A stretch of DNA of 31,428 nucleotides from a virus, in the UHGV virus genome UHGV-0241329. One strand, given 5' to 3'. The notes beneath the pieces were generated by a model. That model was not told the origin of the DNA. It ran no database searches and saw nothing but the letters and a program-made list of their open reading frames with translations. Positions within the stretch are counted from its first letter, which is position 1. Each line of letters starts with the position of its first letter. This document shows, piece by piece, positions 3,451 to 21,141 of this stretch. The translations under genes and the position numbers were made by a program.

Positions 3451-7131
<3,681 letters not shown>

Positions 7132-7151
<20 letters not shown>

Positions 7152-8451
7152 TCTCCCGCATATTGCCAGTATGGCCTTTAATGAGCCGCTGATGCTTGAA
7201 CCCGCCTATGCGCGGGTTTTCTTTTGTGCGCTTGCAGGCCAGCTTGGGATCAGCCGCCTGACGGATGCGGTGTCCGGCGACAGCCTGACTGCCGGAGAGG
7301 CACCCGCGGCGCTGGCGTTATCCGTTGATGATGACGGACCACGACAGGCCCGCAGTTATCAGGTCATGAACGGCATCGCCGTGCTGCCGGTGTCCGGCAC
7401 GCTGGTCAGCCGGACGCGGGCGCTGCAGCCGTATTCGGGGATGACCGGTTACAACGGCATTATCGCCCGTCTGCAACAGGCTGCCAGCGATCCGATGGTG
7501 GACGGCATTCTGCTGGATATGGACACACCGGGCGGGATGGTGGCGGGAGCATTTGACTGTGCTGACATCATCGCCCGTGTGCGAGACATAAAACCGGTAT
7601 GGGCGCTGGCCAACGACATGAACTGCAGTGCAGGTCAGCTGCTTGCCAGCGCCGCCTCCCGGCGTCTGGTCACGCAGACCGCCCGGACAGGCTCCATCGG
7701 CGTCATGATGGCTCACAGTAATTACGGTGCTGCGCTGGAGAAACAGGGCGTGGAAATCACGCTGATTTACAGCGGCAGCCATAAGGTGGATGGCAACCCC
7801 TACAGCCATCTACCGGATGATGTCCGGGAAACACTGCAGTCCCGGATGGATGCAACCCGCCGGATGTTTGCACAGAAGGTGTCGGCATATACCGGCCTGT
7901 CCGTGCAGGCTGTGCTGGATACCGAGGCTGCAGTGTACAGCGGTCAGGAGGCCATTGATGCCGGACTGGCTGATGAACTTGTGAACAGTACCGATGCGAT
8001 CACCGTCATGCGTGATGCACTGGATGCACGTAAATCCCGTCTCTCAGGAGGGCGAATGACCAAAGAGACTCAATCAACAACTGTTTCAGCCACTGCTTCG
8101 CAGGCTGACGTTACTGGCGTGGTGCAAGCGACGGAGGGCGAGAACGCCAGCGCTGCGCAGCCGGACGTGAACGCGCAGATCACCGCAGCGGTTGCGGCAG
8201 AAAACAGTCGCATTATGGGGATCCTCAACTGTGAGGAGGCTCACGGACGCGAAGAACAGGCATGCGTGCTGGCCGAAACCCCCGGTATGACCGTGGAAAC
8301 GGCCCGCCGTATTCTGGCCGCAGCACCACAGAGTGCACAGGCGCGCAGTGACACTGCGCTGGATCGTCTGATGCAGGGGGCACCGGCACCGCTGGCTGCA
8401 GGTAACCCGGCATCTGATGCCGTTAACGATTTGCTGAACACACCAGTGTAA
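7132..8451 (+). CDS. C: Head maturation protease / scaffold C
   Basis: GTG start at 7132 preceded by GAGGAGGAG gives a 439-aa product beginning (M)SAELRNLPHIASMAFNEPLML, lambda gpC-like; overlaps B 3' end. Confidence 0.85.
7846..8451 (+). CDS. Nu3: Scaffolding protein Nu3, in-frame internal start within C
   Basis: ATG at 7846 in the C frame; 606 nt, same length and nested arrangement as lambda Nu3. Confidence 0.75.
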   Translation: MDATRRMFAQKVSAYTGLSVQAVLDTEAAVYSGQEAIDAGLADELVNSTDAITVMRDALDARKSRLSGGRMTKETQSTTVSATASQADVTGVVQATEGENASAAQPDVNAQITAAVAAENSRIMGILNCEEAHGREEQACVLAETPGMTVETARRILAAAPQSAQARSDTALDRLMQGAPAPLAAGNPASDAVNDLLNTPV

Positions 8452-8460
8452 GGGATGTTT

Positions 8461-8793
8461 ATGACGAGCAAAGAAACCTTTACCCATTACCAGCCGCTGG
8501 GCAACAGTGACCCGGCTCATACCGCAACCGCGCCCGGCGGGTTGAGTGCGAAAGCGCCTGCAATGACCCCGCTGATGCTGGACACCTCCACCCGTAAGCT
8601 GGTTGCGTGGGATGGCACCACCGACGGTGCTGCCGTTGGCATTCTTGCAGTTGCTGCTGACCAGACCAGCACCACACTGACGTTCTACAAGTCCGGCACG
8701 TTCCGTTATGAGGATGTGCTCTGGCCGGAGGCTGCCAGCGACGAGACGAAAAAACGGACCGCGTTTGCCGGAACGGCAATCAGCATCGTTTAA
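8461..8793 (+). CDS. D: Head decoration protein D
   Basis: 110-aa product [27 protein letters not shown]..., recalled lambda gpD. Confidence 0.95.
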
Positions 8794-8814
8794 CCTGACC
8801 CTTCATCACTAAAG

Positions 8815-8835
8815 GCCGCCTGTGCGGCTTTTTTT
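8815..8835 (+). terminator. Stem-loop with T-run between D and E
   Basis: GCCGC-CTGT-GCGGC followed by TTTTTTT. Confidence 0.4.
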
Positions 8836-8848
8836 ACGGGATTTTTTT

Positions 8849-9124
8849 ATGTCGATGTACACAACCGCCCAGCTGCTGGCGGCAAATGAGCAGAAATTTA
8901 AGTTTGATCCGCTGTTTCTGCGTCTCTTTTTCCGTGAGAGCTATCCCTTCACCACGGAGAAAGTCTATCTCTCACAAATTCCTGGACTGGTAAACATGGC
9001 GCTGTACGTTTCGCCAATTGTTTCCGGTGAGGTTATCCGTTCCCGTGGCGGCTCCACCTCTGAATTTACGCCGGGTTATGTCAAGCCGAAGCACTTAGCA
9101 TGGCTTTCTGAGGCTTTCGTGTAG
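8849..9124 (+). pseudogene. E: Major capsid protein E, 5' fragment (about 82 codons) truncated by the insertion and fused to 9 foreign codons (LAWLSEAFV)
   Basis: MSMYTTAQLLAANEQKFKFDPLFLRLFFRESYPFTTEKVYLSQIPGLVNMALYVSPIVSGEVIRSRGGSTSEFTPGYVKPKH matches recalled lambda gpE N-terminus, then diverges at 9094. Confidence 0.9.
9084..9093. repeat. attL core, AGCCGAAGCA (left copy of 10-bp direct repeat)
   Basis: Identical 10-mer at 9084..9093 and 20351..20360, exactly where lambda E homology stops and resumes. Confidence 0.8.
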
Positions 9125-9203
9125 TTGCTGGTTTTTACACTTAATCTTTTGATAATAAAGAATAAGTTTATCTGGCGCTTTCACTGAATTTTCCTCGTTA
9201 TCT

Positions 9204-9245
9204 GTGTGTTGCAATCATCTCTGTATTGCAGCTTGTATTGCTTTT
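9204..9245. repeat. Putative integrase arm-type sites (TGTATTGCA-like repeats) in attL arm
   Basis: TGTTGCAA / TGTATTGCA / TGTATTGC at 9207..9241; same motif twice near attR (20253..20273). Confidence 0.45.
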
Positions 9246-9256
9246 TGGGGCTAAAA

Positions 9257-10492
9257 ATGGCTGGCGAGAACAAACTGAGCGACAAAGCGCTTAAAGGATA
9301 TCTGGGGAAACCCAGAGAAAAGCAGATCACCATTGCTGATGGAAAGGGGCTTTCTATTCGTGTGAGTACTAAAGGGGCTGTGAGCTTTGTTTTCTTCTAC
9401 AGGTTAGCAGGTGGCCGGGCTGCTCCGGTCTGGCTAACGTTGGGTAAATATCCTGATATGTCACTCAAATAGGCAAGGGAAAAGCGCGACGAGTGCCGTG
9501 GTTGGTTGGTTGACAAACGTGATCCGCGTATCCAGATTAAGATTCAGGCTGAAGAACGCTTAAAGCCGGTCACAGTGGAGGATGCACTAAATTACTGGTA
9601 TGAAAATTACTGTAAGGTGCGTCGTAAAACTCATGCTGTAACGCTTGGCAGATTTCGAAAGCATATCTTTCCCTATATCGGTCATTTGCCCGTAAATGAC
9701 ACTCACCTATATGAATGGCTGGACTGTTTTGACCGAATTAAACGTAATGCACCAGTTATGGCGGCGTATGTTTTTTCTGACACTAAATTAGCTCTTCGTT
9801 TTTGTCGGGTACGCCAGTACGCGACGTGTGATGCTTTAAAGGATTTGCGCATGAGTGATGTGGGGCAGATTGCAGGTAAGCGGGATCGGGTTCTGGATGA
9901 AGCCGAACTGGGCCAGCTCTGGAAGGCAATTTTTGTCGAGCCTGATTTAAAACTAATGTCTGAATACACGCGAAAAATGTTTGTGCTTTGTACAGTATTT
10001 GGATGTCGAATGAGTGAAGCCCGATTATCTGAATGGAGCGAATGGGATCTCGAAAGTTGGGTTTGGACTGTACCAAAAGATCACTCAAAAACTGGTGTTG
10101 AAATCGTCAGACCAGTACCTGAAATTCTACGACAGTGGGTAACGGATGTTCACGAAGAGACAAAACATACTGGTTATGTGCTGGGAAGTCTGCGAATTAG
10201 AGAAAGCGTAAGCAAGATTGGGGGGAAAATCGGTAAACGTTTGGGCCATGAAAAACAATGGTCACTACACGACCTTAGAAGAACGCTATCTACTCATCTA
10301 AGTGATCTCGGTGTTGAATTTTATGTAGTAGAACAACTGTTAGGCCATGCGCTACCTGGCGTGGCAGGTGTTTACAACAGGAGTAAGTTTATGGCTAAAA
10401 AACTGGATGCTCTGGAACTCTGGACTACATATCTCAATAGCATCGCAGCTGCTGATTCAAAAGTGACAATCCTCAAACAAAAGGCTGGTTAA
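9257..10492 (+). pseudogene. int: Tyrosine integrase (P4-like family) interrupted by in-frame amber codon TAG at 9470..9472
   Basis: Two same-frame ORFs (9206..9472 and 9506..10492) separated only by TAG; N-terminal arm-binding-like domain; C-terminal catalytic motifs HDLRRT and LLGH..GVAGVYNRS. Confidence 0.8.
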
Positions 10493-10493
10493 C

Positions 10494-10721
10494 ATGAAAA
10501 AAATGGCAATTGTTGATAAAAAGGGTCTGGAGTACATTCCTAACATTGACCGAATGATCCGTGAGAAAGAATGTCGGGAGCTAACCACTCTTGCGAACAG
10601 CACACGCTGGAAGCTGGAGAAGGAAGGAAAATTTCCTAAGCGGATCAAGATTGGCGCTACTGCGGTAGCTTATCGTCTCTCCGAAGTTCAGGCATGGATT
10701 AAGGGAGAATGGAGTAATTAA
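10494..10721 (+). CDS. alpA: AlpA-family phage transcriptional regulator / excisionase-like HTH protein
   Basis: 75-aa ORF immediately after int; sequence resembles CP4-57 AlpA-type HTH proteins (LSEVQAWIKG-like C-terminus). Confidence 0.7.
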   Translation: MKKMAIVDKKGLEYIPNIDRMIREKECRELTTLANSTRWKLEKEGKFPKRIKIGATAVAYRLSEVQAWIKGEWSN

Positions 10722-10739: not shown

Positions 10740-11561
10740 ATGACAATGTGTGTTATTTGGAAGTCAGTTGATGGAACTATTTATGCCGCCACAGATTCTC
10801 GACTGAGCTTTGAAGAAAAAAAGTTAGATCGTTGCGTTAAAATATCCCGAATCACATGTCTTTTACATGAGCCTAGTGATGCAGTAGATACAAGTAAGAT
10901 ACTTGTTGATAAGCGTGAGATTGCTACATTATTCTGTGGAGGCTTTACAAATGCCTATATCATCAAGGAGAGCCTTACTGAGATTTTAAATAAAATAGTT
11001 CTCATGAGGGAATACTCCGGTGTGCCCTTTTCGGAAATTATAGATATAGCGTTTTCCATTTATGAAGATACATCAAGAGATATGTTTGCATCATTAATGG
11101 ACCAACGATTTGGATGTGTTTTTTACATGATAAGTTACTGCCCTGTATATAAGGAAATGCAAGCATTTAAATTTGAATTCAAAATAAATGAAAGCGGTAT
11201 TAACTATTATAAATCTAAACTTTTTGAAGATCGTAACTATGAGGTTAATGGAAGTGGGGTGAGGTACTTGGAACAAAATCATCGTATTGAAGATCTAGTT
11301 AAAGAAGCTTATCAGAAGAATAAATACACACCACTTCTAGATATACTTGAGTCCGTAATTAATGATGACGACTGTGACTCTGTTGGAGGTGCAATGCAAT
11401 ACATTTCATGTAATAAAGATAGTCTAAAATTGTGTTGTCATATGTTATTTGAAGAAAATAATTATAAGTATATGAAAGCTGGGGTGGACTTAAATGAACT
11501 CAATGAGAAGTTTATACCTTCTGGTTTGTTTTTTGAGACAGATGCAATCATCAAAAGATAA
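10740..11561 (+). CDS. Hypothetical protein, AT-rich cargo gene
   Basis: 273-aa ORF, visibly AT-rich; no motif recognised; N-terminus MTMCVIW... gives only a faint hint of an N-terminal Cys nucleophile. Confidence 0.55.
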   Translation: MTMCVIWKSVDGTIYAATDSRLSFEEKKLDRCVKISRITCLLHEPSDAVDTSKILVDKREIATLFCGGFTNAYIIKESLTEILNKIVLMREYSGVPFSEIIDIAFSIYEDTSRDMFASLMDQRFGCVFYMISYCPVYKEMQAFKFEFKINESGINYYKSKLFEDRNYEVNGSGVRYLEQNHRIEDLVKEAYQKNKYTPLLDILESVINDDDCDSVGGAMQYISCNKDSLKLCCHMLFEENNYKYMKAGVDLNELNEKFIPSGLFFETDAIIKR

Positions 11562-11866: not shown

Positions 11867-11896
11867 CATAAAACAAAGGCGACCGGGATGGTCGCC
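11867..11896 (-). terminator. Intrinsic terminator downstream of the SWIM gene
   Basis: GGCGACC-GGGAT-GGTCGCC perfect 7-bp stem; on reverse strand followed by TTTGTTTTAT. Confidence 0.6.
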
Positions 11897-11964
11897 AGTG
11901 GCATAACACTAAAATTGAGCGTATTCAGAATACCAAGTGTCGGCTGGTGGACAATGGAATCAGT

Positions 11965-12321
11965 TCAATATTTAGGTGGTTCAACAAGAGCGTTTATCAT
12001 TGCTCTCAAATTATCGCGAACACTTATCCAAGTCTGTTCTGCTCGTTCTAACTCATTAGTGTACAGCTTTAATGTTTTATCTATGCCATATGTGGCTATT
12101 AAATTTATAGCTTCTTGTAACTTTTCGGGATTATTCCTTCTTGGGGGAGTGAATATACCGCGGATTTTTCCGGTAATTAAAGCTTTACGGTGTCTACATA
12201 GAATACCTTTACTTCCTGCTGGACAATTACAAGTCATGATTAGCGAGCCAGAATCGTTTGATACAGTGACTATGTATACATCCAAACTACTGCTACTTGT
12301 TGCGAAGAATTCGTATTTCAT
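11965..12321 (-). CDS. Small SWIM-type zinc-finger protein
   Basis: 118-aa ORF with CNC-x9-CRH (CxCx(n)CxH) motif; co-oriented 28 bp downstream of RHH gene. Confidence 0.55.
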   Translation of the reverse strand: MKYEFFATSSSSLDVYIVTVSNDSGSLIMTCNCPAGSKGILCRHRKALITGKIRGIFTPPRRNNPEKLQEAINLIATYGIDKTLKLYTNELERAEQTWISVRDNLRAMINALVEPPKY

Positions 12322-12348
12322 GTGTTAGCTCCTTGACTTCAATTATTC

Positions 12349-12543
12349 TTATCCTTTTGGTTCAATACCGCGCCGTAGCAGCTCTTTGCGCCCTAACTCT
12401 TTAAGCCAGTTGGCAAGGCTTACCCCATCGTTACTGGCTTCGTTATCAAACTGCTCCTTCAATTCAGGAACTATGCGCATATGGAACGGTGGGGCCTTTC
12501 CTGTGCCTTTTTGTTTTTTATCGCGCTTAATAACCGTTGACAT
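12349..12543 (-). CDS. Ribbon-helix-helix (Arc/CopG-like) DNA-binding protein, candidate element repressor
   Basis: 64-aa ORF; FHMRIVPELKEQF beta-strand followed by helices; start codon overlaps a palindromic operator. Confidence 0.5.
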   Translation of the reverse strand: MSTVIKRDKKQKGTGKAPPFHMRIVPELKEQFDNEASNDGVSLANWLKELGRKELLRRGIEPKG

Positions 12544-12600
12544 GTGTACACCTATAGCGTTATGTTTTTATTCGATAGGTGTACACCTTAACATGTGTGC
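12541..12600. promoter_or_regulatory. Divergent control region with palindromic operators
   Basis: GTGTACACCTAT (12544..12555) and its inverted copy ATAGGTGTACAC (12575..12586), each containing palindrome GTGTACAC; ACATGTGT repeated; TTGACA at 12537..12542. Confidence 0.5.
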
Positions 12601-12878
12601 ATTTAAAAACGCAACGCCCCGCAGTGCGGGAACACATGCAGGGCGTCTAACCACCAACGATAGCAACAGTATCGAGGTAGCTATGAGAAATCATACCACA
12701 CACCCGCAAGGGCGGGACTCGCACAACCTGAATAAATTCACTTGGCGCTTTATCGCCCTGAGTGCGGCTAAACCGCGCATGCTTACCATCGTGGTCACCA
12801 GCGAGCAGGAAGACCGCCAGCAATCCCCAACTGGCTGCGTGATGATATTCGCCGCCCGTATTCGTCAGGAGGTGTGCC

Positions 12879-13103
12879 ATGAATGATCTTTATTTTAAAG
12901 TGCTGACACATGCTGAAAACGCGCTCGTTTGTGGCAAAAATATGCGAGAAATCTTATCAACCTGGCTTGATGGGACAACAAATGCGGAACACGATGAACG
13001 GGATGCTAATTTAGCTGGAGCGTTAATTACGTTACTTGATCCTGTCATCAAAGAGCTGGATGAAGCTATAAAAATACACGACCAGAGCTATACCGGAGAA
13101 TAA
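12879..13103 (+). CDS. Hypothetical small protein
   Basis: 74-aa ORF, first gene of the rightward operon leading to primase. Confidence 0.45.
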   Translation: MNDLYFKVLTHAENALVCGKNMREILSTWLDGTTNAEHDERDANLAGALITLLDPVIKELDEAIKIHDQSYTGE

Positions 13104-13106
13104 AAA

Positions 13107-13394
13107 ATGAAAAATAAATTTTCTGGCTTTATTGCCAGCGGTCAAACTCATTCAAAAATCAGCCTTGGGGATATTTTCAAAGACAGCTATGGCTATCGGG
13201 TAAAGATTATTTCGGTTGATGATCGTCGTGTCTCTTATTTGCGTGATGGTTATGATTTTGAATGTGTTATGCCGCGTCAGCAGTTCGAAAGAGATTTCAT
13301 TCTGGTAAAAAATTGCAAGACAGATAATCAGAGGCGTGCCGCAGGCTATATCCGTAAAATTCGGGCAATGTTAGTTGCCGGAGGTAACAAATGA
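13107..13394 (+). CDS. Hypothetical small protein
   Basis: 95-aa ORF; 3' end overlaps primase start (ATGA). Confidence 0.45.
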   Translation: MKNKFSGFIASGQTHSKISLGDIFKDSYGYRVKIISVDDRRVSYLRDGYDFECVMPRQQFERDFILVKNCKTDNQRRAAGYIRKIRAMLVAGGNK

Positions 13395-15211
13395 AACGTG
13401 CTCCGAACTTAAAATACCAACCGCGCGACAAAATGACGGAAGTCATCATTTTTGCTGGCAGTGATGCCTGGAGCCATGCAAAAGAATGGAATGAATGGGC
13501 AGGTAAGCATATTGCAGCAGATGATACACCACCAGTCATTCTGGGTACGGAACAACTGGAAAACCTGGATGATATGCAAATTATCGATGAAGGCCGTCAT
13601 TATGTGCGTGTTTATCGTGCCGGAAAGATTGCAGAGAAAAGTCTGACGAAGGTTGCGACATTACTTGCTATTGCAGGCGTAAAGGAAGCACGTTGTTACC
13701 GTAGCTTTGTTGATCGAGAGCCTGAAGACTGGACTCCGCGCCTTGTCGGCCTAAAAGCTGAAGCGGAGCATGGGGAAAGTCTGGTGATTGAACTGCCAGT
13801 GAAGAAGGCAGAGCGCAAAAATGACGAGCGTGCTTCATCTTTGGCGTTGAATCAGATGGGGGCCAGCCAGCGCGGTGAAGTTCTCCTTGCACATTACGGC
13901 GGTGAACTGGCAATCAATGCCGACTCTGACACCGTTCATCATTACAACGGCGTTGTATGGGAGCCGGTTCAGGATAAAGAGTTACAGCGTTCTATGGCGC
14001 AGATTTTCATTGATGCGGAGATCAGCTATTCGCAGAACGCTATTAAATCGGCGGTAGATACCATGAAGTTAAGTTTGCCTGTAATGGGGAATACAGCCCG
14101 TAACCTGATTGGATTCAGTAACGGGGTATTTGATACCAGAACTGGTAATTTTCGGGAGCATAACAAAAACGACTGGTTGTTAATTGCCAGTGAATTACCT
14201 TTCAGCCCACCAGCAGAGGGGGAAACGCTGGCAACACATGCGCCGAATTTCTGGAAGTGGTTGCGCCGTTCGGTGGCTGAGAATGACCGCAAGGCAGATC
14301 GCGTACTGGCGGCATTATTCATGGTGCTGGCGAACCGGTACGACTGGCAGTTATTCATTGAGGTAACAGGGCCGGGGGGAAGTGGTAAAAGTGTGATGGC
14401 GGAGATTTGCACCATGCTGGCGGGTAAGGCTAATACAGTATCAGCAAGCATGAAGGCGCTGGAAGATGCAAGGGAACGTGCGTTAGTGGTTGGCTTTTCG
14501 CTGATTATCATGCCGGATATGACCCGCTACGCTGGTGATGGGGCAGGGATTAAGGCCATTACAGGCGGTGACAAGGTGGCAATTGACCCGAAACACAAAG
14601 CCCCCTATTCAACGCGTATTCCGGCAGTAGTGCTGGCGGTTAACAATAACGCCATGTCATTCAGTGACCGCAGCGGGGGGATCTCACGTCGTCGGGTGAT
14701 ATTCAATTTTTCGGAAGTTGTACCGGAGAACGAACGCGATTCGATGCTGGCGGAAAAAATAGAAGGTGAGCTGGCGGTAGTGATTCGTCATCTGCTTACA
14801 AGGTTTGCTGATCAGGACGAAGCCAGACGCCTGTTATATGAGCAGCAGAAATCTGAAGAAGCACTGGCGATAAAGCGAGAGGGGGATTCGCTGGTGGACT
14901 TCTGCGGTTATCTCATGGCATCGGTAATGTGTGATGGCCTGTTAGTGGGTAATGCTGAAATTGTGCCATTCAGCCCACGCAGGTATCTCTATCATGCCTA
15001 TCTGGCTTATATGAGGGCACATGGGTTTGGTAAACCTGTAACACTGACGCGCTTCGGTAAAGATATGCCGGGGGCAATGGCGGAATATGGCAGGGAGTAT
15101 ATGAAACGGAAAACGAAGCACGGTTTGCGTTCAAACGTGACACTGACGGAGGAATCAGAAGACTGGATGCCATCATGTGTATCGGTCACTAATGACGATA
15201 GCAAAAATTAA
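13391..15211 (+). CDS. Primase-helicase replication protein (P4 alpha / PICI Pri-Rep-like)
   Basis: 606-aa ORF; Walker A EVTGPGGSGKS in C-terminal half; followed directly by iteron origin. Confidence 0.75.
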   Translation: MKRAPNLKYQPRDKMTEVIIFAGSDAWSHAKEWNEWAGKHIAADDTPPVILGTEQLENLDDMQIIDEGRHYVRVYRAGKIAEKSLTKVATLLAIAGVKEARCYRSFVDREPEDWTPRLVGLKAEAEHGESLVIELPVKKAERKNDERASSLALNQMGASQRGEVLLAHYGGELAINADSDTVHHYNGVVWEPVQDKELQRSMAQIFIDAEISYSQNAIKSAVDTMKLSLPVMGNTARNLIGFSNGVFDTRTGNFREHNKNDWLLIASELPFSPPAEGETLATHAPNFWKWLRRSVAENDRKADRVLAALFMVLANRYDWQLFIEVTGPGGSGKSVMAEICTMLAGKANTVSASMKALEDARERALVVGFSLIIMPDMTRYAGDGAGIKAITGGDKVAIDPKHKAPYSTRIPAVVLAVNNNAMSFSDRSGGISRRRVIFNFSEVVPENERDSMLAEKIEGELAVVIRHLLTRFADQDEARRLLYEQQKSEEALAIKREGDSLVDFCGYLMASVMCDGLLVGNAEIVPFSPRRYLYHAYLAYMRAHGFGKPVTLTRFGKDMPGAMAEYGREYMKRKTKHGLRSNVTLTEESEDWMPSCVSVTNDDSKN

Positions 15212-15498: not shown

Positions 15499-15744
15499 AT
15501 GACAGCGAAGCACACAAAAAAATCACAATCGCACGCCCTTGATTTGACGGAACACTGGTTAAGGGTGTCGATAAAAATCATCGACCGCAACGCCGGGGAA
15601 GGATACGCGAAAGCACATCCCGAACTGATTAGCGCATTCATGACAACGGCGGCTGCAAACTTTGCCACTCTGACCGAACGGGAGATTGCTGAAGCGGAGG
15701 AAGTGACAACAATCAATATTAAGTCCGGAGAGCAGGCAGCATGA
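15499..15744 (+). CDS. Hypothetical protein
   Basis: 81-aa ORF between ori and ssb; ATGA overlap with ssb. Confidence 0.45.
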   Translation: MTAKHTKKSQSHALDLTEHWLRVSIKIIDRNAGEGYAKAHPELISAFMTTAAANFATLTEREIAEAEEVTTINIKSGEQAA

Positions 15745-16190
15745 CGGCGCAAATATCAGTTTACGGGCGGTTGGTGGACGACCCGCAGACAAAACAGACC
15801 AGCAAGAGCACCCCCATGACGCTGGCACGTATGGCGGTATCACTGCCCTGCAGTCAGTCGGATGACGGTCAGGCGACGATGTGGTTATCTGTCCTGGCGT
15901 TTGGCAGACAAGCCGACGCGCTGGCAAAGCATCACAAAGGCGAACTCCTGAGCGTGGCGGGTAATATGCAGGTGAGCCAGTGGACTGGACAGAACGGTGA
16001 AACGCGGCAGGGCTGGCAGGTTATCGCAGACAGCGTAATCAGTGCGCGAACGGTGCGACCGGGCGGCAAAAAAGGTCAACAGGGTCAGGCTACTGACGCA
16101 CTGAACAGAGCAAAACAACAGGCAGATCAGCAAGGAAGCCATCCACCAGTGGGAGATAATGAGCAATGGGGAGATGATATTCCGTTTTAA
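15741..16190 (+). CDS. ssb: Single-stranded DNA-binding protein
   Basis: 149-aa ORF; Gly/Gln-rich linker and acidic C-terminal tail ...GDDIPF, typical of SSB. Confidence 0.8.
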   Translation: MTAQISVYGRLVDDPQTKQTSKSTPMTLARMAVSLPCSQSDDGQATMWLSVLAFGRQADALAKHHKGELLSVAGNMQVSQWTGQNGETRQGWQVIADSVISARTVRPGGKKGQQGQATDALNRAKQQADQQGSHPPVGDNEQWGDDIPF

Positions 16191-16402
16191 ATATTGCCAA
16201 TAAAAAAGGCCGGAAAAAAAATAAATTTTCCGGCATGCTACATAAATCCCGACCAAAGGGAGTGAAGATATTAACACTAATTATCCGCGCTGAAGTTGTT
16301 ATCCCAAAACTTTATACAACATTGCACTCGGTTGCATGTATTCGCATGATAAATATCGGTGATAGCATATATCCACAATTATTTTTAATGAATGCAAAGA
16401 GG

Positions 16403-17449
16403 ATGCGTATGGTTGATTTATATTCGCCTACCCAGCTTGTACAGGTGGTTAATGCTGTAGATGTACAAAAACAACTAAATGCGTTGTTTACCAGTTTGTT
16501 TTTTACTCGCTCGGTAATGTTTGAATCGCGCGATATTATTCTTGATACAATCGACGATCCAAATATCCCAATTGCAGCGTTTTGTTCTCCTATGGTGGGT
16601 AGTAAAGTTTCACGTGACGAAGGGTACGAATCAAAAACAATTCGTCCAGGCTATATGAAGCCGAAAAGCAGCATTGATCCAAATAAGTTAGCTGTGCGCC
16701 CTGCTGGTGTATCACCTGAGCAATACAATGCTTTTGGAGCGCGTAATATTAAAGTTAAACAGGCGATTGTAAATCAGGCTAAAGCTATTCGTGCACGTAT
16801 TGAATGGCTTGCCGTTCAGGCAATCACAACGGGGAAAAATATCATTGAGGGCGATGGTATTGAACGTTATGAGCTGGACTGGAATATTAAACCACAAAAT
16901 ATCATCACTCAGTCTGGCGGTGCTGAGTGGTCAGGTAAGGATAAAGAAACTTTTGATCCAAATGATGATATTGAGAGCTACGCAGAATTTAGTGAGGGCG
17001 TCACTAATATCATCATTATGGGCGGTAATGTATGGAAGAAATACCGTTCATTCAGAGCGATAAAAGAGGCTCTGGATACCCGTCGTGGTTCTAATTCCGA
17101 ACTGGAAACGGCCCTTAAAGACCTTGGTGATTCGGTGAGTTTTAAAGGGTATATGGGCGATGTTGCGATTGTTGTATACAGCGGGCGTTATACCGATGAG
17201 GACGGAACTGAAAAACATTTCCTTGATCCTGATTTGATGGTGCTTGGCAATACAGCTCTTCAGGGGATTGTCGCCTATGGCGGTATTCAGGATCCGGAGC
17301 TAATCCGAATGGGGCTGACTAAAGCCGAACTTGCACCGAAAAACTATATTGTGCCTGGTGATCCGGCTATTGAATATGTGCAGACACATTCAGCACCACA
17401 GCCAATACCGGCCCGCATCAATCGTTTTGTTACCGTTCGCATTGGCTAA
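16403..17449 (+). CDS. Major capsid protein, divergent homolog of lambda gpE, encoded by the element
   Basis: Aligns along its length with lambda gpE, e.g. ITQSGGAEWSGKDKETFDPNDDIESYA vs ITQSGGTEWSKRDKSTYDPTDDIEAYA, and LDTRRGSNSELETA identical; start uncertain among ATG 16388/16403/16409. Confidence 0.8.
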   Translation: MRMVDLYSPTQLVQVVNAVDVQKQLNALFTSLFFTRSVMFESRDIILDTIDDPNIPIAAFCSPMVGSKVSRDEGYESKTIRPGYMKPKSSIDPNKLAVRPAGVSPEQYNAFGARNIKVKQAIVNQAKAIRARIEWLAVQAITTGKNIIEGDGIERYELDWNIKPQNIITQSGGAEWSGKDKETFDPNDDIESYAEFSEGVTNIIIMGGNVWKKYRSFRAIKEALDTRRGSNSELETALKDLGDSVSFKGYMGDVAIVVYSGRYTDEDGTEKHFLDPDLMVLGNTALQGIVAYGGIQDPELIRMGLTKAELAPKNYIVPGDPAIEYVQTHSAPQPIPARINRFVTVRIG

Positions 17450-17458
17450 GGGGGAGCA

Positions 17459-17800
17459 ATGGCTACTCATTACACTGAACTCATGGCTGGCACTGAAGCA
17501 CTGGTGACTACGCTGGGGATATTTTCAGCTAATAAAGGGGTAATTCCTGCATTTACGCCACTGATGCAGGAAGATGCAACAGGTGCACTGGTGGTATGGG
17601 ATGGTTCGAGCGTAGGTAAAGCGGTTTATGTTTCCGCTGTACAAATCGACACCGCGAAAAAAACACAGGCTCAGGTCTATAAGACAGGTGTCTTAAATGT
17701 TGATGCTCTGAACTGGCCTGAGTCTGTAAAAGAACTGTCAGTAAAGATTGCAGCGTTTGTTGGCTCAGGTATTTCTGTTCAGCCGCTGGCTCGTGTGTAA
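17459..17800 (+). CDS. Head decoration protein, divergent homolog of lambda gpD
   Basis: 113 aa; LVVWDGSSVGKAVYVSAVQ...KTGVLNVDALNWPE...AAFVGSGISV parallels lambda gp[20 protein letters not shown]...[14 protein letters not shown]...[11 protein letters not shown]. Confidence 0.65.
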   Translation: MATHYTELMAGTEALVTTLGIFSANKGVIPAFTPLMQEDATGALVVWDGSSVGKAVYVSAVQIDTAKKTQAQVYKTGVLNVDALNWPESVKELSVKIAAFVGSGISVQPLARV

Positions 17801-17811
17801 AGGGGGATACA

Positions 17812-18195
17812 ATGCAGAATGATTACAATGACCTTAAGCCAATTGCCGAAATGATGTACCCGAATCCAGCTGTAGAGGAATTAAAAGCTATCGCTGACAA
17901 AATGTGTTTAAGCGAGCGCCTTGTTGATATGAATCAGGTGATGGAAATTACAACCCTGAGTCGGCGTACACTGCTAAACCTTGAGGCTAGTGGAGAGTTC
18001 CCGGAGCGTGTGCAGGTTACGGAAGGGCGTAAGGCCTGGTATTTAAGTGAAGTGATCGACTGGATAAATAATATTCCTCGCGCTTCTGAATATTGCCGCG
18101 TACCTGTCCCAAAAAAGCCAGATGCGGCGCTATGCCTCAAGATTGAGCGTGTACGCCGCAATGCACGGGATGGTCGCTATAAGCTGATTGGTTGA
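17812..18195 (+). CDS. HTH protein (AlpA-like DNA-binding segment) immediately upstream of element cos
   Basis: 127 aa; segment MNQVMEITTLSRRTLLNLEASGEFPERVQVTEGRKAWYLSEVIDWINN resembles AlpA/MerR-type HTH. Confidence 0.5.
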   Translation: MQNDYNDLKPIAEMMYPNPAVEELKAIADKMCLSERLVDMNQVMEITTLSRRTLLNLEASGEFPERVQVTEGRKAWYLSEVIDWINNIPRASEYCRVPVPKKPDAALCLKIERVRRNARDGRYKLIG

Positions 18196-18214
18196 TGAAA
18201 TTAGGGCCCGCTCT

Positions 18215-18425
18215 GGCTGGCGGGTCCTTTCTGGCGATCTGACAGGCTACGGGGCGTCAGGCGCGCAGATTCTTGCTATTTATGACAATTTTCTGCGATT
18301 TGCCGTTTCCGTTCTTCTTCCTCGTAACTTAGTGTTTTTATTAGAAATACCCTCTAAAAAGAAAGGAAATGACAGGTGCTGAAAACAGGCTTTTGGGTCT
18401 CCGTCATTTCCTTTCTCATTTTTAT
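18215..18425 (+). other. cos: Element cos site, homologous to prophage cos but with divergent cohesive-end sequence GGGCGTCAGGCG (18252..18263)
   Basis: Aligns with 2690..2900: cosQ-like GCGGGTCCTTTCTGGCGATCTGACAGGCTACG and cosB-like GTTTCCGTTCTTCTTC / AAAGAAAGGAAATGACAGGTGCTGAAA conserved; cohesive-end 12-mer differs at 5 of 12 positions. Confidence 0.8.
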
Positions 18426-18679
18426 CTAAAAGTAAGCATCGAGGCCACCCCAAATGCTTATAGAGGTTATTGTGTCACTATGCGTACTGTTCAGGATTTA
18501 AAGTAGCAAGACATCTAGTTGCTTGCAGTTTTGGCGAATGATGTGAGGTTCTGCTATAACAGATAATGTAACAAGTTACTGATATATTCTGTTATGGTTG
18601 ACTTTAAATTTTGTTGCTCCTTCAATGAATTATTGAGGGGTGAAAATTAGGCGTGATAAGAATCGATCACGCCTATTGT

Positions 18680-19996
18680 TTATCTTGAAGAAATTTTAGG
18701 CAGGCTTTTTAAAAATAAATCTTTATTTCTACTTGCATCAGTTAAAAGTGTTAGGAATATTTTATCTGTAGGAGTGCATGTGCTCTTGTTTAACAGTAAT
18801 TCACCAAGTTTCTGTAATCGAGAGAATTGCCCATCCTCTTGGATTCTGTGACGAAGTGTACTATCATTTTTAATAACATCAACAAATGCAGAAACCATGT
18901 TAATATCAAAGTGTTCAAACATTTCCAATATTAAAGGTGCAGCCCCATTTGAATAAAAATTCTTCCTTCCATACTGATAGCTGAAACCACGATGGCCAAC
19001 ATAAGTTTTTGTAATGGCTGAAACAAATTCAACAATATTATCTTCAGGGACGAAACTCGAGAATGGTAATAATTGGGTTACGATTTTTTCCTCTTCTGAC
19101 CAATTATCTAAAGACTCGGTGAGTTTATTAATGAGAGGCTCAATAATAACTTTTCGGGATGCAGGGCTAATATACATCAGTCCATCTACCAATAGTATGA
19201 ATTGTTGTGCCTTCTCTATCTTATTGTTGTTTCCTGAAACTAAATACTTGTCAAATTGTTGGCCGACTTTACGTCGGTCGTCTTTTGAAAGTAATGTCCA
19301 TAAAATAGGTGCGCAAAATTCAATGTTGTTTCTGAGTTCACTTGATATATTGGATGAGCAGTATGTGCCAAAAAAACGAGAGGATAATTCACTGATATAA
19401 ATTGCAGGTAGATCTGAAAAGGCTTGCTTAACTGCCAGGCTATTTTTATTAAATGTTGCCGAATCCATTTCTGAAAGATATGTAGATATATCTATGATGG
19501 CTGGTGGAAACTCTTTAGAAAGAACGTATTTATTACAATCATTAATCAGGTTCACTACTTTGATTAAATCAGGGTCGCTACTTTGTGGATGTCCACCAAA
19601 TAGATTCCTGGTTTCTCTAGCTTGTTGTAATAGTTTCTGACCTTCTCGATCGATAACTCCTATTTTAAATGCTCCATCTATTAAATCAAAGTCGCTCACA
19701 TAATCCTGAAAATCTTCATACGTTTTAATTTCTTTTTTTTGTTTACACTCTTTGTTGAATAGATCTAGGCTACGATGAATTATCTTTTGACGTAAATCAT
19801 CAACTACAGCATTCCAGTAAGCAGTGATGGCACTTCTATAACCTTTTACAGGAAGAACTCTTATTGCTTCTGAAATATATGGGCAGTCAACTACATCATG
19901 CCTCACAGTTGAGAGCGCAGTTTGTAACAATGTAACTTCTGTAGAGTCTAGTGGAGTTGGCTGCACTAAATGAGAACTTATCTCTGTACCCTTCAT
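18680..19996 (-). CDS. Hypothetical protein, AT-rich cargo gene at attR end
   Basis: 438-aa ORF on reverse strand, visibly AT-rich; no motif recognised; hairpin AGGCGTGAT-N8-ATCACGCCT at 18649..18674 just 3' of it. Confidence 0.55.
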   Translation of the reverse strand: MKGTEISSHLVQPTPLDSTEVTLLQTALSTVRHDVVDCPYISEAIRVLPVKGYRSAITAYWNAVVDDLRQKIIHRSLDLFNKECKQKKEIKTYEDFQDYVSDFDLIDGAFKIGVIDREGQKLLQQARETRNLFGGHPQSSDPDLIKVVNLINDCNKYVLSKEFPPAIIDISTYLSEMDSATFNKNSLAVKQAFSDLPAIYISELSSRFFGTYCSSNISSELRNNIEFCAPILWTLLSKDDRRKVGQQFDKYLVSGNNNKIEKAQQFILLVDGLMYISPASRKVIIEPLINKLTESLDNWSEEEKIVTQLLPFSSFVPEDNIVEFVSAITKTYVGHRGFSYQYGRKNFYSNGAAPLILEMFEHFDINMVSAFVDVIKNDSTLRHRIQEDGQFSRLQKLGELLLNKSTCTPTDKIFLTLLTDASRNKDLFLKSLPKISSR

Positions 19997-20350
19997 TTCA
20001 GGATTTTCCTATTCTTTTCCATTTTTCTACTCTATTGAATTTGAAAAAGATATCAAGTTCGTTCTTGCCAGTTTTAAGTGGAAAAATTGATGTTACCTTA
20101 TTGAGATAAGGCAGTTCTCTATAACCTATTGTTATTAATTATTTTTATTTTTTTTCCAATTCAGATGTTTAGGGCTAAGAAGTTAAGTGAGAGTTCACAG
20201 CAAAACTGCTTCTAGTTCCTCACCGAGGAGCAAAAGGTTAAGACAGCGTACTTTGTATTGCACAATGTATTGCAGAACCTTCTTTCGAAAGCTACAACAA
20301 TCAATTTTATATTGAAAATTCAATCATATCCTTTCGATATTGACTCATAT

Positions 20351-20360
20351 AGCCGAAGCA
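20351..20360. repeat. attR core, AGCCGAAGCA (right copy of 10-bp direct repeat)
   Basis: Identical to 9084..9093; lambda E homology resumes here. Confidence 0.8.
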
Positions 20361-21141
20361 TGAGGTGAATCCGCAGATGACCCTGCGTCGCCTGCCGGAT
20401 GAAGATCCGCAGAATCTGGCGGACCCGGCTTACCGCCGCCGTCGCATCATCCTGCAGAACATGCGTGACGAAGAGCTGGCCATTGCTCAGGTCGAAGAGA
20501 TGCAGGCAGTTTCTGCCGTGCTCAAGGGCAAATACACCATGACCGGTGAAGCCTTCGATCCGGTTGAGGTGGATATGGGCCGCAGTGCGGCGAACAACAT
20601 CACGCAGTCCGGCGGCACGGAGTGGAGCAAGCGTGACAAGTCCACGTATGACCCGACCGACGATATCGAAGCCTACGCGCTGAACGCCAGCGGCGTGGTG
20701 AATATCATCGTGTTTGATCCGAAAGGCTGGGCGCTGTTCCGTTCCTTCAAAGCCGTCAAGGAGAAGCTGGATACCCGTCGCGGCTCTAATTCCGAGCTGG
20801 AGACAGCGGTAAAAGACCTGGGCGAAGCGGTGTCCTATAAGGGGATGTATGGCGATACGGCGATCGTCGTGTATTCCGGACAGTACGTGGAAAACGACGT
20901 CAAAAAGAACTTCCTGCCGGACAACACGATGGTGCTGGGGAACACTCAGGCACGCGGTCTGCGCACCTATGGCTGCATTCAGGATGCGGACGCACAGCGC
21001 GAAGGTATTAACGCCTCTGCCCGCTACCCGAAAAACTGGGTGACCACCGGCGATCCGGCGCGTGAGTTCACCATGATTCAGTCAGCACCGCTGATGCTGC
21101 TGGCTGATCCTGATGCGTTCGTGTCCGTACAACTGGCGTAA
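20353..21141 (+). pseudogene. E: Major capsid protein E, 3' fragment (from codon about 80) lacking its native start
   Basis: PKHEVNPQMTLRRLPDEDPQNLADPAYRRRR...VSVQLA matches recalled lambda gpE C-terminal 260 aa; in-frame TAG at 20350..20352 immediately upstream. Confidence 0.9.

Follow-up and report, generated by a model that had tools for sequence, protein, structure and literature searches.

Among the described phage satellites, the closest to the element discussed here is 11capE, a helper-embedded PICI (HE-PICI) reported by Tommasini, Mageeney and Williams in 2023 (NAR Genom Bioinform, PMC10111431). This element is inserted at codon 80 of the Phage_cap_E profile, in the homolog of the lambda E gene (site E:Phage_cap_E:80), and the same survey counted 201 instances at the E site and 290 at 13 other late-gene sites. 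Experiments in that study showed that, on induction with mitomycin C, 11capE excises precisely at the attB and attP that had been predicted. A doubled motif, tgTGTATTGCAntgTGTATTGCa, was found twice in every HE-PICI attP, at 81 ± 2 bp upstream and 132 ± 2 bp downstream of the attP centre, both copies in the same orientation; the integrase (Int), AlpA or another protein were all left possible as its binder. The motif was called unique to the HE-PICIs, and the fis PICIs, their sister group, were stated to lack it (PMC10111431).

The DNA analysed here is the virus genome UHGV-0241329, 31,428 nucleotides in all (hereafter the window), and it represents the late region of a lambdoid prophage with terminase, portal, protease, decoration protein and tail genes. 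An 11,267-bp insert with a lower G+C content than the surrounding prophage splits the lambda-E-like major capsid gene of this helper prophage. The 5' part of the gene (8849..9093, + strand) ends in the attL identity block AGCCGAAGCA (9084..9093, +); the second copy of this 10-bp duplication makes up the attR block (20351..20360, +), directly after which the 3' part of the gene resumes (20361..21141, +). The likely crossover, or overlap, segment is the first 7 bp of the block, since in the Kosakonia and Cedecea relatives (L002, L003) the identity between attL and attR covers only these 7 bp, A(A/G)CC(A/G)AA. An overlap region of seven base pairs is what one would expect of a tyrosine recombinase. 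A preliminary description of this DNA had drawn the boundaries of the element from the split E gene, and they hold up well: when 8822..9093 is joined to 20361..21141 an uninterrupted E-like capsid reading frame is obtained, and the distance from the repeats discussed below to the 7-bp crossover is fixed. The same 5' capsid pseudogene fragment is annotated in NZ_CP062853.

Judged by its sequence, the insert is an 11.27-kb helper-embedded PICI of the 11capE type. It has the motif tgTGTATTGCAntgTGTATTGCa, the E-homolog host gene, the orientation and the gene order (int-alpA-...-primase-SSB-capsid) of the published element. The first gene, int (9257..10492, +), codes for a P4-type tyrosine integrase with an N-terminal arm-binding domain recognized by Pfam, and is a pseudogene in the window. 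It is followed by alpA (10494..10721, +; PF05930, E 6e-15), which encodes an AlpA-family winged-helix protein (excisionase or transcription factor), by the genes of a D5-type primase/helicase (13391-15211, +) and an SSB (15741-16190, +), and by the satellite's own E-like capsid protein (16235-17449, +; Phage_cap_E, E 2e-41), its D-like decoration protein (HDPD; 17459-17800) and a second AlpA-like protein (17812-18195). The int, alpA, primase, SSB and capsid genes all lie on the + strand, co-oriented with the late genes of the prophage. The E and D homologs of the satellite (16235-17800) are the counterparts of the interrupted gene and its neighbour, and such homologs have already been discussed in PMC10111431. 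Nothing essential sets the window element apart from the published 11capE; its own traits are a stop codon within int and, at the right end, a rare cargo.

The right-end cargo deserves a few words of its own. A 438-residue open reading frame on the minus strand (about 18680-19996) sits just inside attR, in a segment of 34-36% G+C (surroundings 18200-20250). PADLOC returned no match for this frame or for those at 10740..11558, 12386..12883 and 11888..12325 (+, overlapping), and Pfam returned none for the frames at about 18680-19996 (-), 10740..11558 and 12386..12883. In other copies, the right end has a small terminase subunit and a DUF2971 gene instead of the 438-residue frame, and the right end of the element as found here is common to only 12 of 5426 E. 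coli genomes. The region just inside attR looks like a variable cargo slot. The left junction is shared by 174 E. coli complete-genome records and the right end by only 12, because the cargo next to attR varies.

Two tandem pairs of a short half-site flank the element from within. The left, or P'-arm, pair consists of TGTATTGCA at 9222-9230 (+) and TGTATTGCT at 9234-9242 (+), the latter ending 14 nt before the int ATG, so that the pair occupies the stretch 14-35 nt upstream of the start codon. The right, or P-arm, pair has TGTATTGCA twice, at 20254-20262 (+) and at 20266-20274 (+). Both are tandem pairs of the core 8-mer TGTATTGC on the + strand with a 12-bp period (9222/9234 and 20254/20266). 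From the first base of the attL identity block to the left pair there are 138 bp; on the other side, the attR block begins 97 bp after the start of the right pair and 85 bp after that of its second half-site, and the distance from pair to pair is 235 bp in this copy. Taken from the proximal edges of the two copies of the doubled motif, the distance to the centre of the crossover (AGCCGAA) is 80 bp on the right, from 20274 to 20354, and 133 bp on the left, from 9087 to 9220. The repeats had been placed by the preliminary description at 9207..9241, about 130 bp inward of attL, and at 20253..20273, about 90 bp inward of attR; they are real, the coordinates were right to within 2 bp, and the rounded distances were fair. 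The same description held that the motif would lose its meaning if it were equally frequent elsewhere in the window, and it is not: the exact 8-mer TGTATTGC is present in 8 copies where 1.18 would be expected, a count not reached in any of 100 shuffles that preserved dinucleotides. Four of the 8 copies are the two tandem pairs. The other four (11396, 16720, 17247 and 30244) are single, lie on the opposite strand, and are absent from the Kosakonia and Cedecea relatives; the three internal ones (11396, 16720, 17247) were considered as extra sites and rejected for their absence there.

A degenerate copy with one mismatch, TGTGTTGCA, is found at 9205-9213 (+), 17 bp upstream of the P' pair. It was considered as a general fifth site and rejected. 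Its function is doubtful, because it decays in close relatives, where it becomes TGCGTTGCA and CGCGTTGCG, and is not general across the insertion-site groups, the extra copies of other groups being placed elsewhere. The number of P'-arm half-sites does vary among HE-PICI groups (left arms L203, L013, L032 and L073): one group has three tandem P' copies, in another the pair is followed, 33-35 bp downstream, by a third copy, and the capE group has just the decaying one upstream.

A search of contigs from genomes with a single Int protein retrieved three relatives, which are close and make for a lenient test of conservation. In the strain Res13-Lact-PEB20-37-A the DNA of the right arm differs from that of the window, but TGTATTGCAC-nn-TGTATTGCA is retained in it, and from the start of the second copy to the identity block there are exactly 85 bp, the distance seen in the window. 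The pairs, with the 85 bp and the 138 bp, recur in the elements of Kosakonia and Cedecea, whose Ints show 88% and 83% identity, respectively. The 85 bp from the second P half-site to attR is the same in the window and in the relatives L001, L002 and L003 despite the diverged DNA in between.

A broader view was obtained by scanning IMG/VR for the exact pattern TGTATTGCNNNNTGTATTGC, with the counts taken among the first 120 matches listed. Of these, 80 are HE-PICI ends by our own classification, namely 46 left ends with an Int gene following and 34 right ends which abut a late-gene fragment in at least 5 junction classes; the remaining 40 of the 120 listed are unrelated or coding repeats. When the arms were made non-redundant, the doubled motif was the sole strongly conserved sequence in 12 left arms, whose Ints are 49-99% identical, and likewise in 18 right arms, among them 9 variants within the capE group; the first P' half-site is invariant across the 12 left-arm classes, and both P half-sites are conserved across the 18 right arms. 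Three insertion-site groups (capE, terminase or TerL, and a third one) keep the right pair 92-97 bp ahead of the identity block and the left pair 138-140 bp beyond it. The pairs are kept in relatives inserted in other late genes, though the surrounding DNA is unrelated. The motif search across homologous elements that had been proposed at the outset therefore came out in favour of conservation.

Several candidates for elements outside this group turned out to belong to it. An E. coli search was aimed at PICIs that would have the same AlpA without the motif, and the candidates inspected from it (H123, H126) are again capE HE-PICIs, and two supposed sister elements (H103, H105) were rejected as HE-PICIs at ClpP-type and TerL sites. 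A sister clade was also sought by scanning viral contigs with an Int alignment, and the best 80 loci were all HE-PICI members. Some of the members in other E. coli genomes have unusual surroundings. In NZ_CP023349 (L206) the HE-PICI is inserted in a ClpP-type head protease gene whose own neighbour is the primase gene of a PICI, a case of one satellite inside another; in NZ_AGTD01000001 (L005) it occupies the large terminase gene and comes with a full set of head genes. A metagenomic viral contig (L057) has two doubled TGTATTGCA motifs (7252-7271 and 7510-7529) 258 bp apart, plus an inverted copy, which adjoin the 3' end of the gene for an unrelated 456-residue tyrosine integrase (7556-8926, -) without a match to the window Int. 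This integrase may use the same half-site by convergence.

In the integrase of the window, PF13356 covers residues 7-93 (E 2.3e-18), PF00589 and PF14659 also score above threshold, and PF22022 comes just below its own; the N-terminal domain matches the solved arm-type binding domains 3ju0 and 3jtz of the HAI7 and HPI integrases. For AlpA, the alignment matches the solved structure 8c3t. The Ints of 174 E. coli elements with this E-gene junction are 99% identical to that of the window, and those from other late-gene sites with the same motif 50-56%, identities which point to a place within the HE-PICI clade and, there, in the capE subgroup. It is worth pointing out that this particular copy of int carries an in-frame TAG at codon 72 (9470-9472; LK*AR), where 58 of 58 closely related copies have CAG (Gln). 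The satellite of the window is probably unable to excise on its own, and the arm sites are probably idle in this copy because of the nonsense codon, unless Int is supplied in trans. Without suppression of the stop or Int in trans, the satellite would stay where it is and the E gene of the helper would be split permanently.

Which protein reads the repeats was left open in the 2023 study, and it is here that the comparison of many elements offers some help. We consider it likely that the repeats are the arm-type Int sites of the satellite attP, read by the N-terminal arm domain of Int. The arrangement had been described beforehand as that of integrase arm-binding sites; the PF13356 domain in Int, and a layout equal to that of the arm repeats in the P4 attP, speak for it. 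A further argument comes from an alignment of twelve Ints from different insertion-site groups. The arm domain has a mean pairwise identity of 66% with 39% of its columns invariant, compared to 44% and 14% for the core-binding domain, 49% and 24% for the catalytic domain, and 51% (down to 38%) and 27% for the AlpA encoded after int. Of the whole integration module, then, the arm domain has changed least, as would be expected if the core-binding domain had been retargeted repeatedly and the arm domain had gone on reading one invariant word.

Further support is found in the fis PICIs, which have a different half-site. Compared with the invariant residues of the HE-PICIs, their Int arm domain has R35 changed to K, F44 to W and W59 to R, along with a three-residue deletion. 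The three residues were placed in presumed strands by sequence alignment, and the DNA-contact residues of both Int and AlpA by homology. The replacements in the arm domain accompany the change in half-site, a covariation drawn from only four lineages, each a single evolutionary event.

The main alternative, which we hold to be improbable, is that the repeats are bound by the AlpA of the satellite, acting as an excisionase that bends both arms, as an activator of the int-alpA operon, or as both. AlpA was named as a candidate binder in PMC10111431, its gene comes directly after int in every complete HE-PICI examined, and it co-occurs with the motif as faithfully as Int does. The left pair, just ahead of int, is near the start of the int-alpA operon, and excision factors typically bind phased direct repeats, according to a passage in PMC7498355. 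However, the presumed recognition helix and wing of AlpA vary strongly among the groups that share the invariant motif (NSTRWKLEK, QAGLYRAEK, RRHRSLLEK and KSTRAFMEK), as does the protein as a whole, with the low identities given above. Excision factors normally have their sites on a single arm, in the interval from the arm-type sites to the core; the present motif occupies the distal positions of both arms. The layout of two plus two half-sites is also seen in phi80, which has Xis without AlpA, and in P4 and the fis PICIs, where the AlpA or Vis gene is far from int. Finally, the similarity among AlpA proteins does not follow the half-site class, because the fis-PICI AlpA shares 57% identity with the second AlpA of one HE-PICI, that in the large terminase gene (L005), and 46% with the AlpA of the window. 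On these grounds we favour Int over AlpA as the binder, a preference that we infer from the comparison of sequences.

Far less probable still is a host factor, or some other protein of the satellite or helper, as the binder of the repeats. Such a binder was left possible by PMC10111431, and the arms do have other features on which other factors probably act. An AAATCA-like block between the P pair and the core is weakly conserved (at least 60%) in the 18 non-redundant right arms. It lies near the position of two direct repeats of the window, ATTCAATCATAT (20318-20329) and ATTGACTCATAT (20339-20350), which are spaced by 21 bp and directly precede the crossover. Either these repeats or the block could be the site of a host bending protein, or an extra core-type or AlpA site. 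Against a host factor as the reader of the doubled motif stands the fact that elements in the same hosts (E. coli, Klebsiella) use differing half-sites, TGTATTGCA, TGTATAAACA, TTGGGGGCAT and TTGTGTAC, in the same layout; a host factor is unlikely for this reason, and a partner encoded by the element and co-evolving with its half-site is indicated. That the repeats are a chance similarity, or replication-origin iterons unrelated to recombination, is hardly credible: the 8-mer is short, and the 40 of the 120 IMG/VR matches listed that are not HE-PICI ends illustrate how tandem TGTATTGC can come about by chance or in coding repeats, but no shuffle reached the observed count, several insertion-site groups whose flanks are unrelated keep the same spacing to the crossover, and the PICI origin was placed downstream of the primase gene (PMC10111431).

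With Int as the reader, the repeats could be accommodated in a simple mechanism. One tandem pair would be on the P arm, now beside attR, and the other on the P' arm, now beside attL, so that each of the four half-sites could be held by the N-terminal arm-binding domain of one protomer in an Int tetramer. The C-terminal core-binding and catalytic domains would meanwhile occupy the core sites flanking the 7-bp crossover A(A/G)CC(A/G)AA. The fixed distances, about 81 and 132 bp from the crossover centre, together with bending by a host factor, by AlpA or by both, would fold the arms onto the core, with AlpA serving as the directionality factor. The folded complex would then carry out integration into E, or the precise excision that restores E. 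Int bound to the P' pair, 14 nt before its own start codon, would probably also repress int. A passage in PMC2951348, citing Piazzolla 2006, describes P4 Int as autoregulated, through its direct binding to DNA close to where int transcription begins; the same source reports negative autoregulation for IntS of KplE1. By analogy with these cases, autoregulation at the P' pair is a conjecture, because a search for the int promoter around the left pair gave one weak -35/-10 match upstream of it (9134-9163), not above shuffles.

As a discovery, the present finding adds little: the repeats are a rediscovery of the doubled motif published in 2023, and the element that contains them is known as well. 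Our additions are modest, namely the evidence that favours Int over AlpA and the two-plus-two layout held in common with the fis PICIs, phi80 and P4. The repeats are nonetheless of interest as the mark of the recombination machinery of a satellite that resides inside the capsid gene of its helper, a gene whose restoration needs precise excision. To identify the protein that reads them would explain how a constant scaffold goes together with repeated retargeting of the core to new phage late genes. The Int arm domain is the cleaner hypothesis compared to AlpA, and is open to a simple gel-shift test, for which TGTCGTGCA is proposed as a mutant version of the half-site TGTATTGCA in the control. 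There is also a practical use of the doubled motif, as a specific signature for HE-PICI ends, which make up the 80 of the 120 IMG/VR matches listed.

We would like to end with the integrase systems in which the same layout is seen, beginning with the fis PICIs. The record LR881103 ('vB_KppS-Ant', L209) is a packaged 16.5-kb satellite with an intact attP and an Int 50% identical to that of the window. It is without TGTATTGC; it has TGTATAAACAnnTGTATAAACA twice, co-oriented and 233 bp apart (4850-5106), the second copy 17 bp before the int ATG, and the reverse complement of the 3' end of fis lies between the two. A scan for the fis-variant pattern gave 76 stretches, of which 34 are right ends that have the fis block at +91, and 31 are left ends with Int after them. 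The 233-bp spacing occurs in three intact fis attPs, two from the pattern scan and one from a GenBank Klebsiella phage record, and at one fis-PICI locus a complete Fis reading frame abuts the element. The variant doubled motif TGTATAAACAnnTGTATAAACA is found at loci L264, L280, L286 and L230 as well. The half-site of the fis PICIs is thus TGTATAAACA, in pairs with a 12-bp period, co-oriented with int and with the P' pair just upstream of it. They differ from the HE-PICIs in having a chromosomal target and in the place of AlpA, 1.2 kb from int instead of directly after it. The published uniqueness of the HE-PICI motif is true of its sequence, not of its layout.

Phage phi80 has the same two-plus-two layout with the half-site TTGTGTAC and 244 bp between the pairs (L288, 333-352 and 577-616). 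An extra direct copy of the half-site overlaps the int start codon, the excision factor is a lambda-type Xis in place of AlpA, and the target is chromosomal. In phage P4 (NC_001609), two pairs at 4174-4151 and 3965-3942 are annotated as 'attP arm sequence repeat'. Their period is 12 bp, they lie one on each side of the core and both in the orientation of int, and the P' pair ends 16 bp before the int ATG (3926). The half-site of P4 is TTGGGGGCAT, not TGTATTGCA, the pairs are 209 bp apart versus 235 bp in the window, extra inverted copies are present at and inside the int start, and the Vis gene is 5 kb from int. The target of P4 is a tRNA-Leu gene, versus a phage gene for the HE-PICIs. Between P4 and the window the layout is homologous and the specificity different.

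The likeness to lambda is more distant. In lambda the two DNA-binding domains of Int bridge distal arm-type sites (P1, P2 and P'1-P'3) and core sites. The neighbouring P' sites are arranged as direct repeats, and accessory bending proteins determine the directionality. The arm domain of lambda Int is not PF13356, and its five sites are used in differing subsets for integration and excision, in contrast to the symmetric two plus two seen here. The attP of lambda also lies beyond the 3' end of int, whereas here it is upstream of int.

PF13356 is present in the integrases of all four systems, HE-PICIs, fis PICIs, phi80 and P4. Since the excision factors differ among them in kind and in position, Int alone accompanies the layout throughout. 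We lean, with some reserve, to the idea that the doubled motif is one allele of an older attP layout of the PF13356 (P4-type) integrases, in which each arm would have two half-sites with a 12-bp period, the pairs would be 209-244 bp apart, the P' pair would abut the start of int, and the half-sites would have co-evolved with residues in the presumed beta-strands of the arm domain. If this is true, it corrects the published statement that the fis PICIs lack such a motif, and TGTATTGCA of the HE-PICIs, TGTATAAACA of the fis PICIs, TTGTGTAC of phi80 and TTGGGGGCAT of P4 would form, with their arm domains, a natural set of orthogonal arm-domain/half-site pairs.
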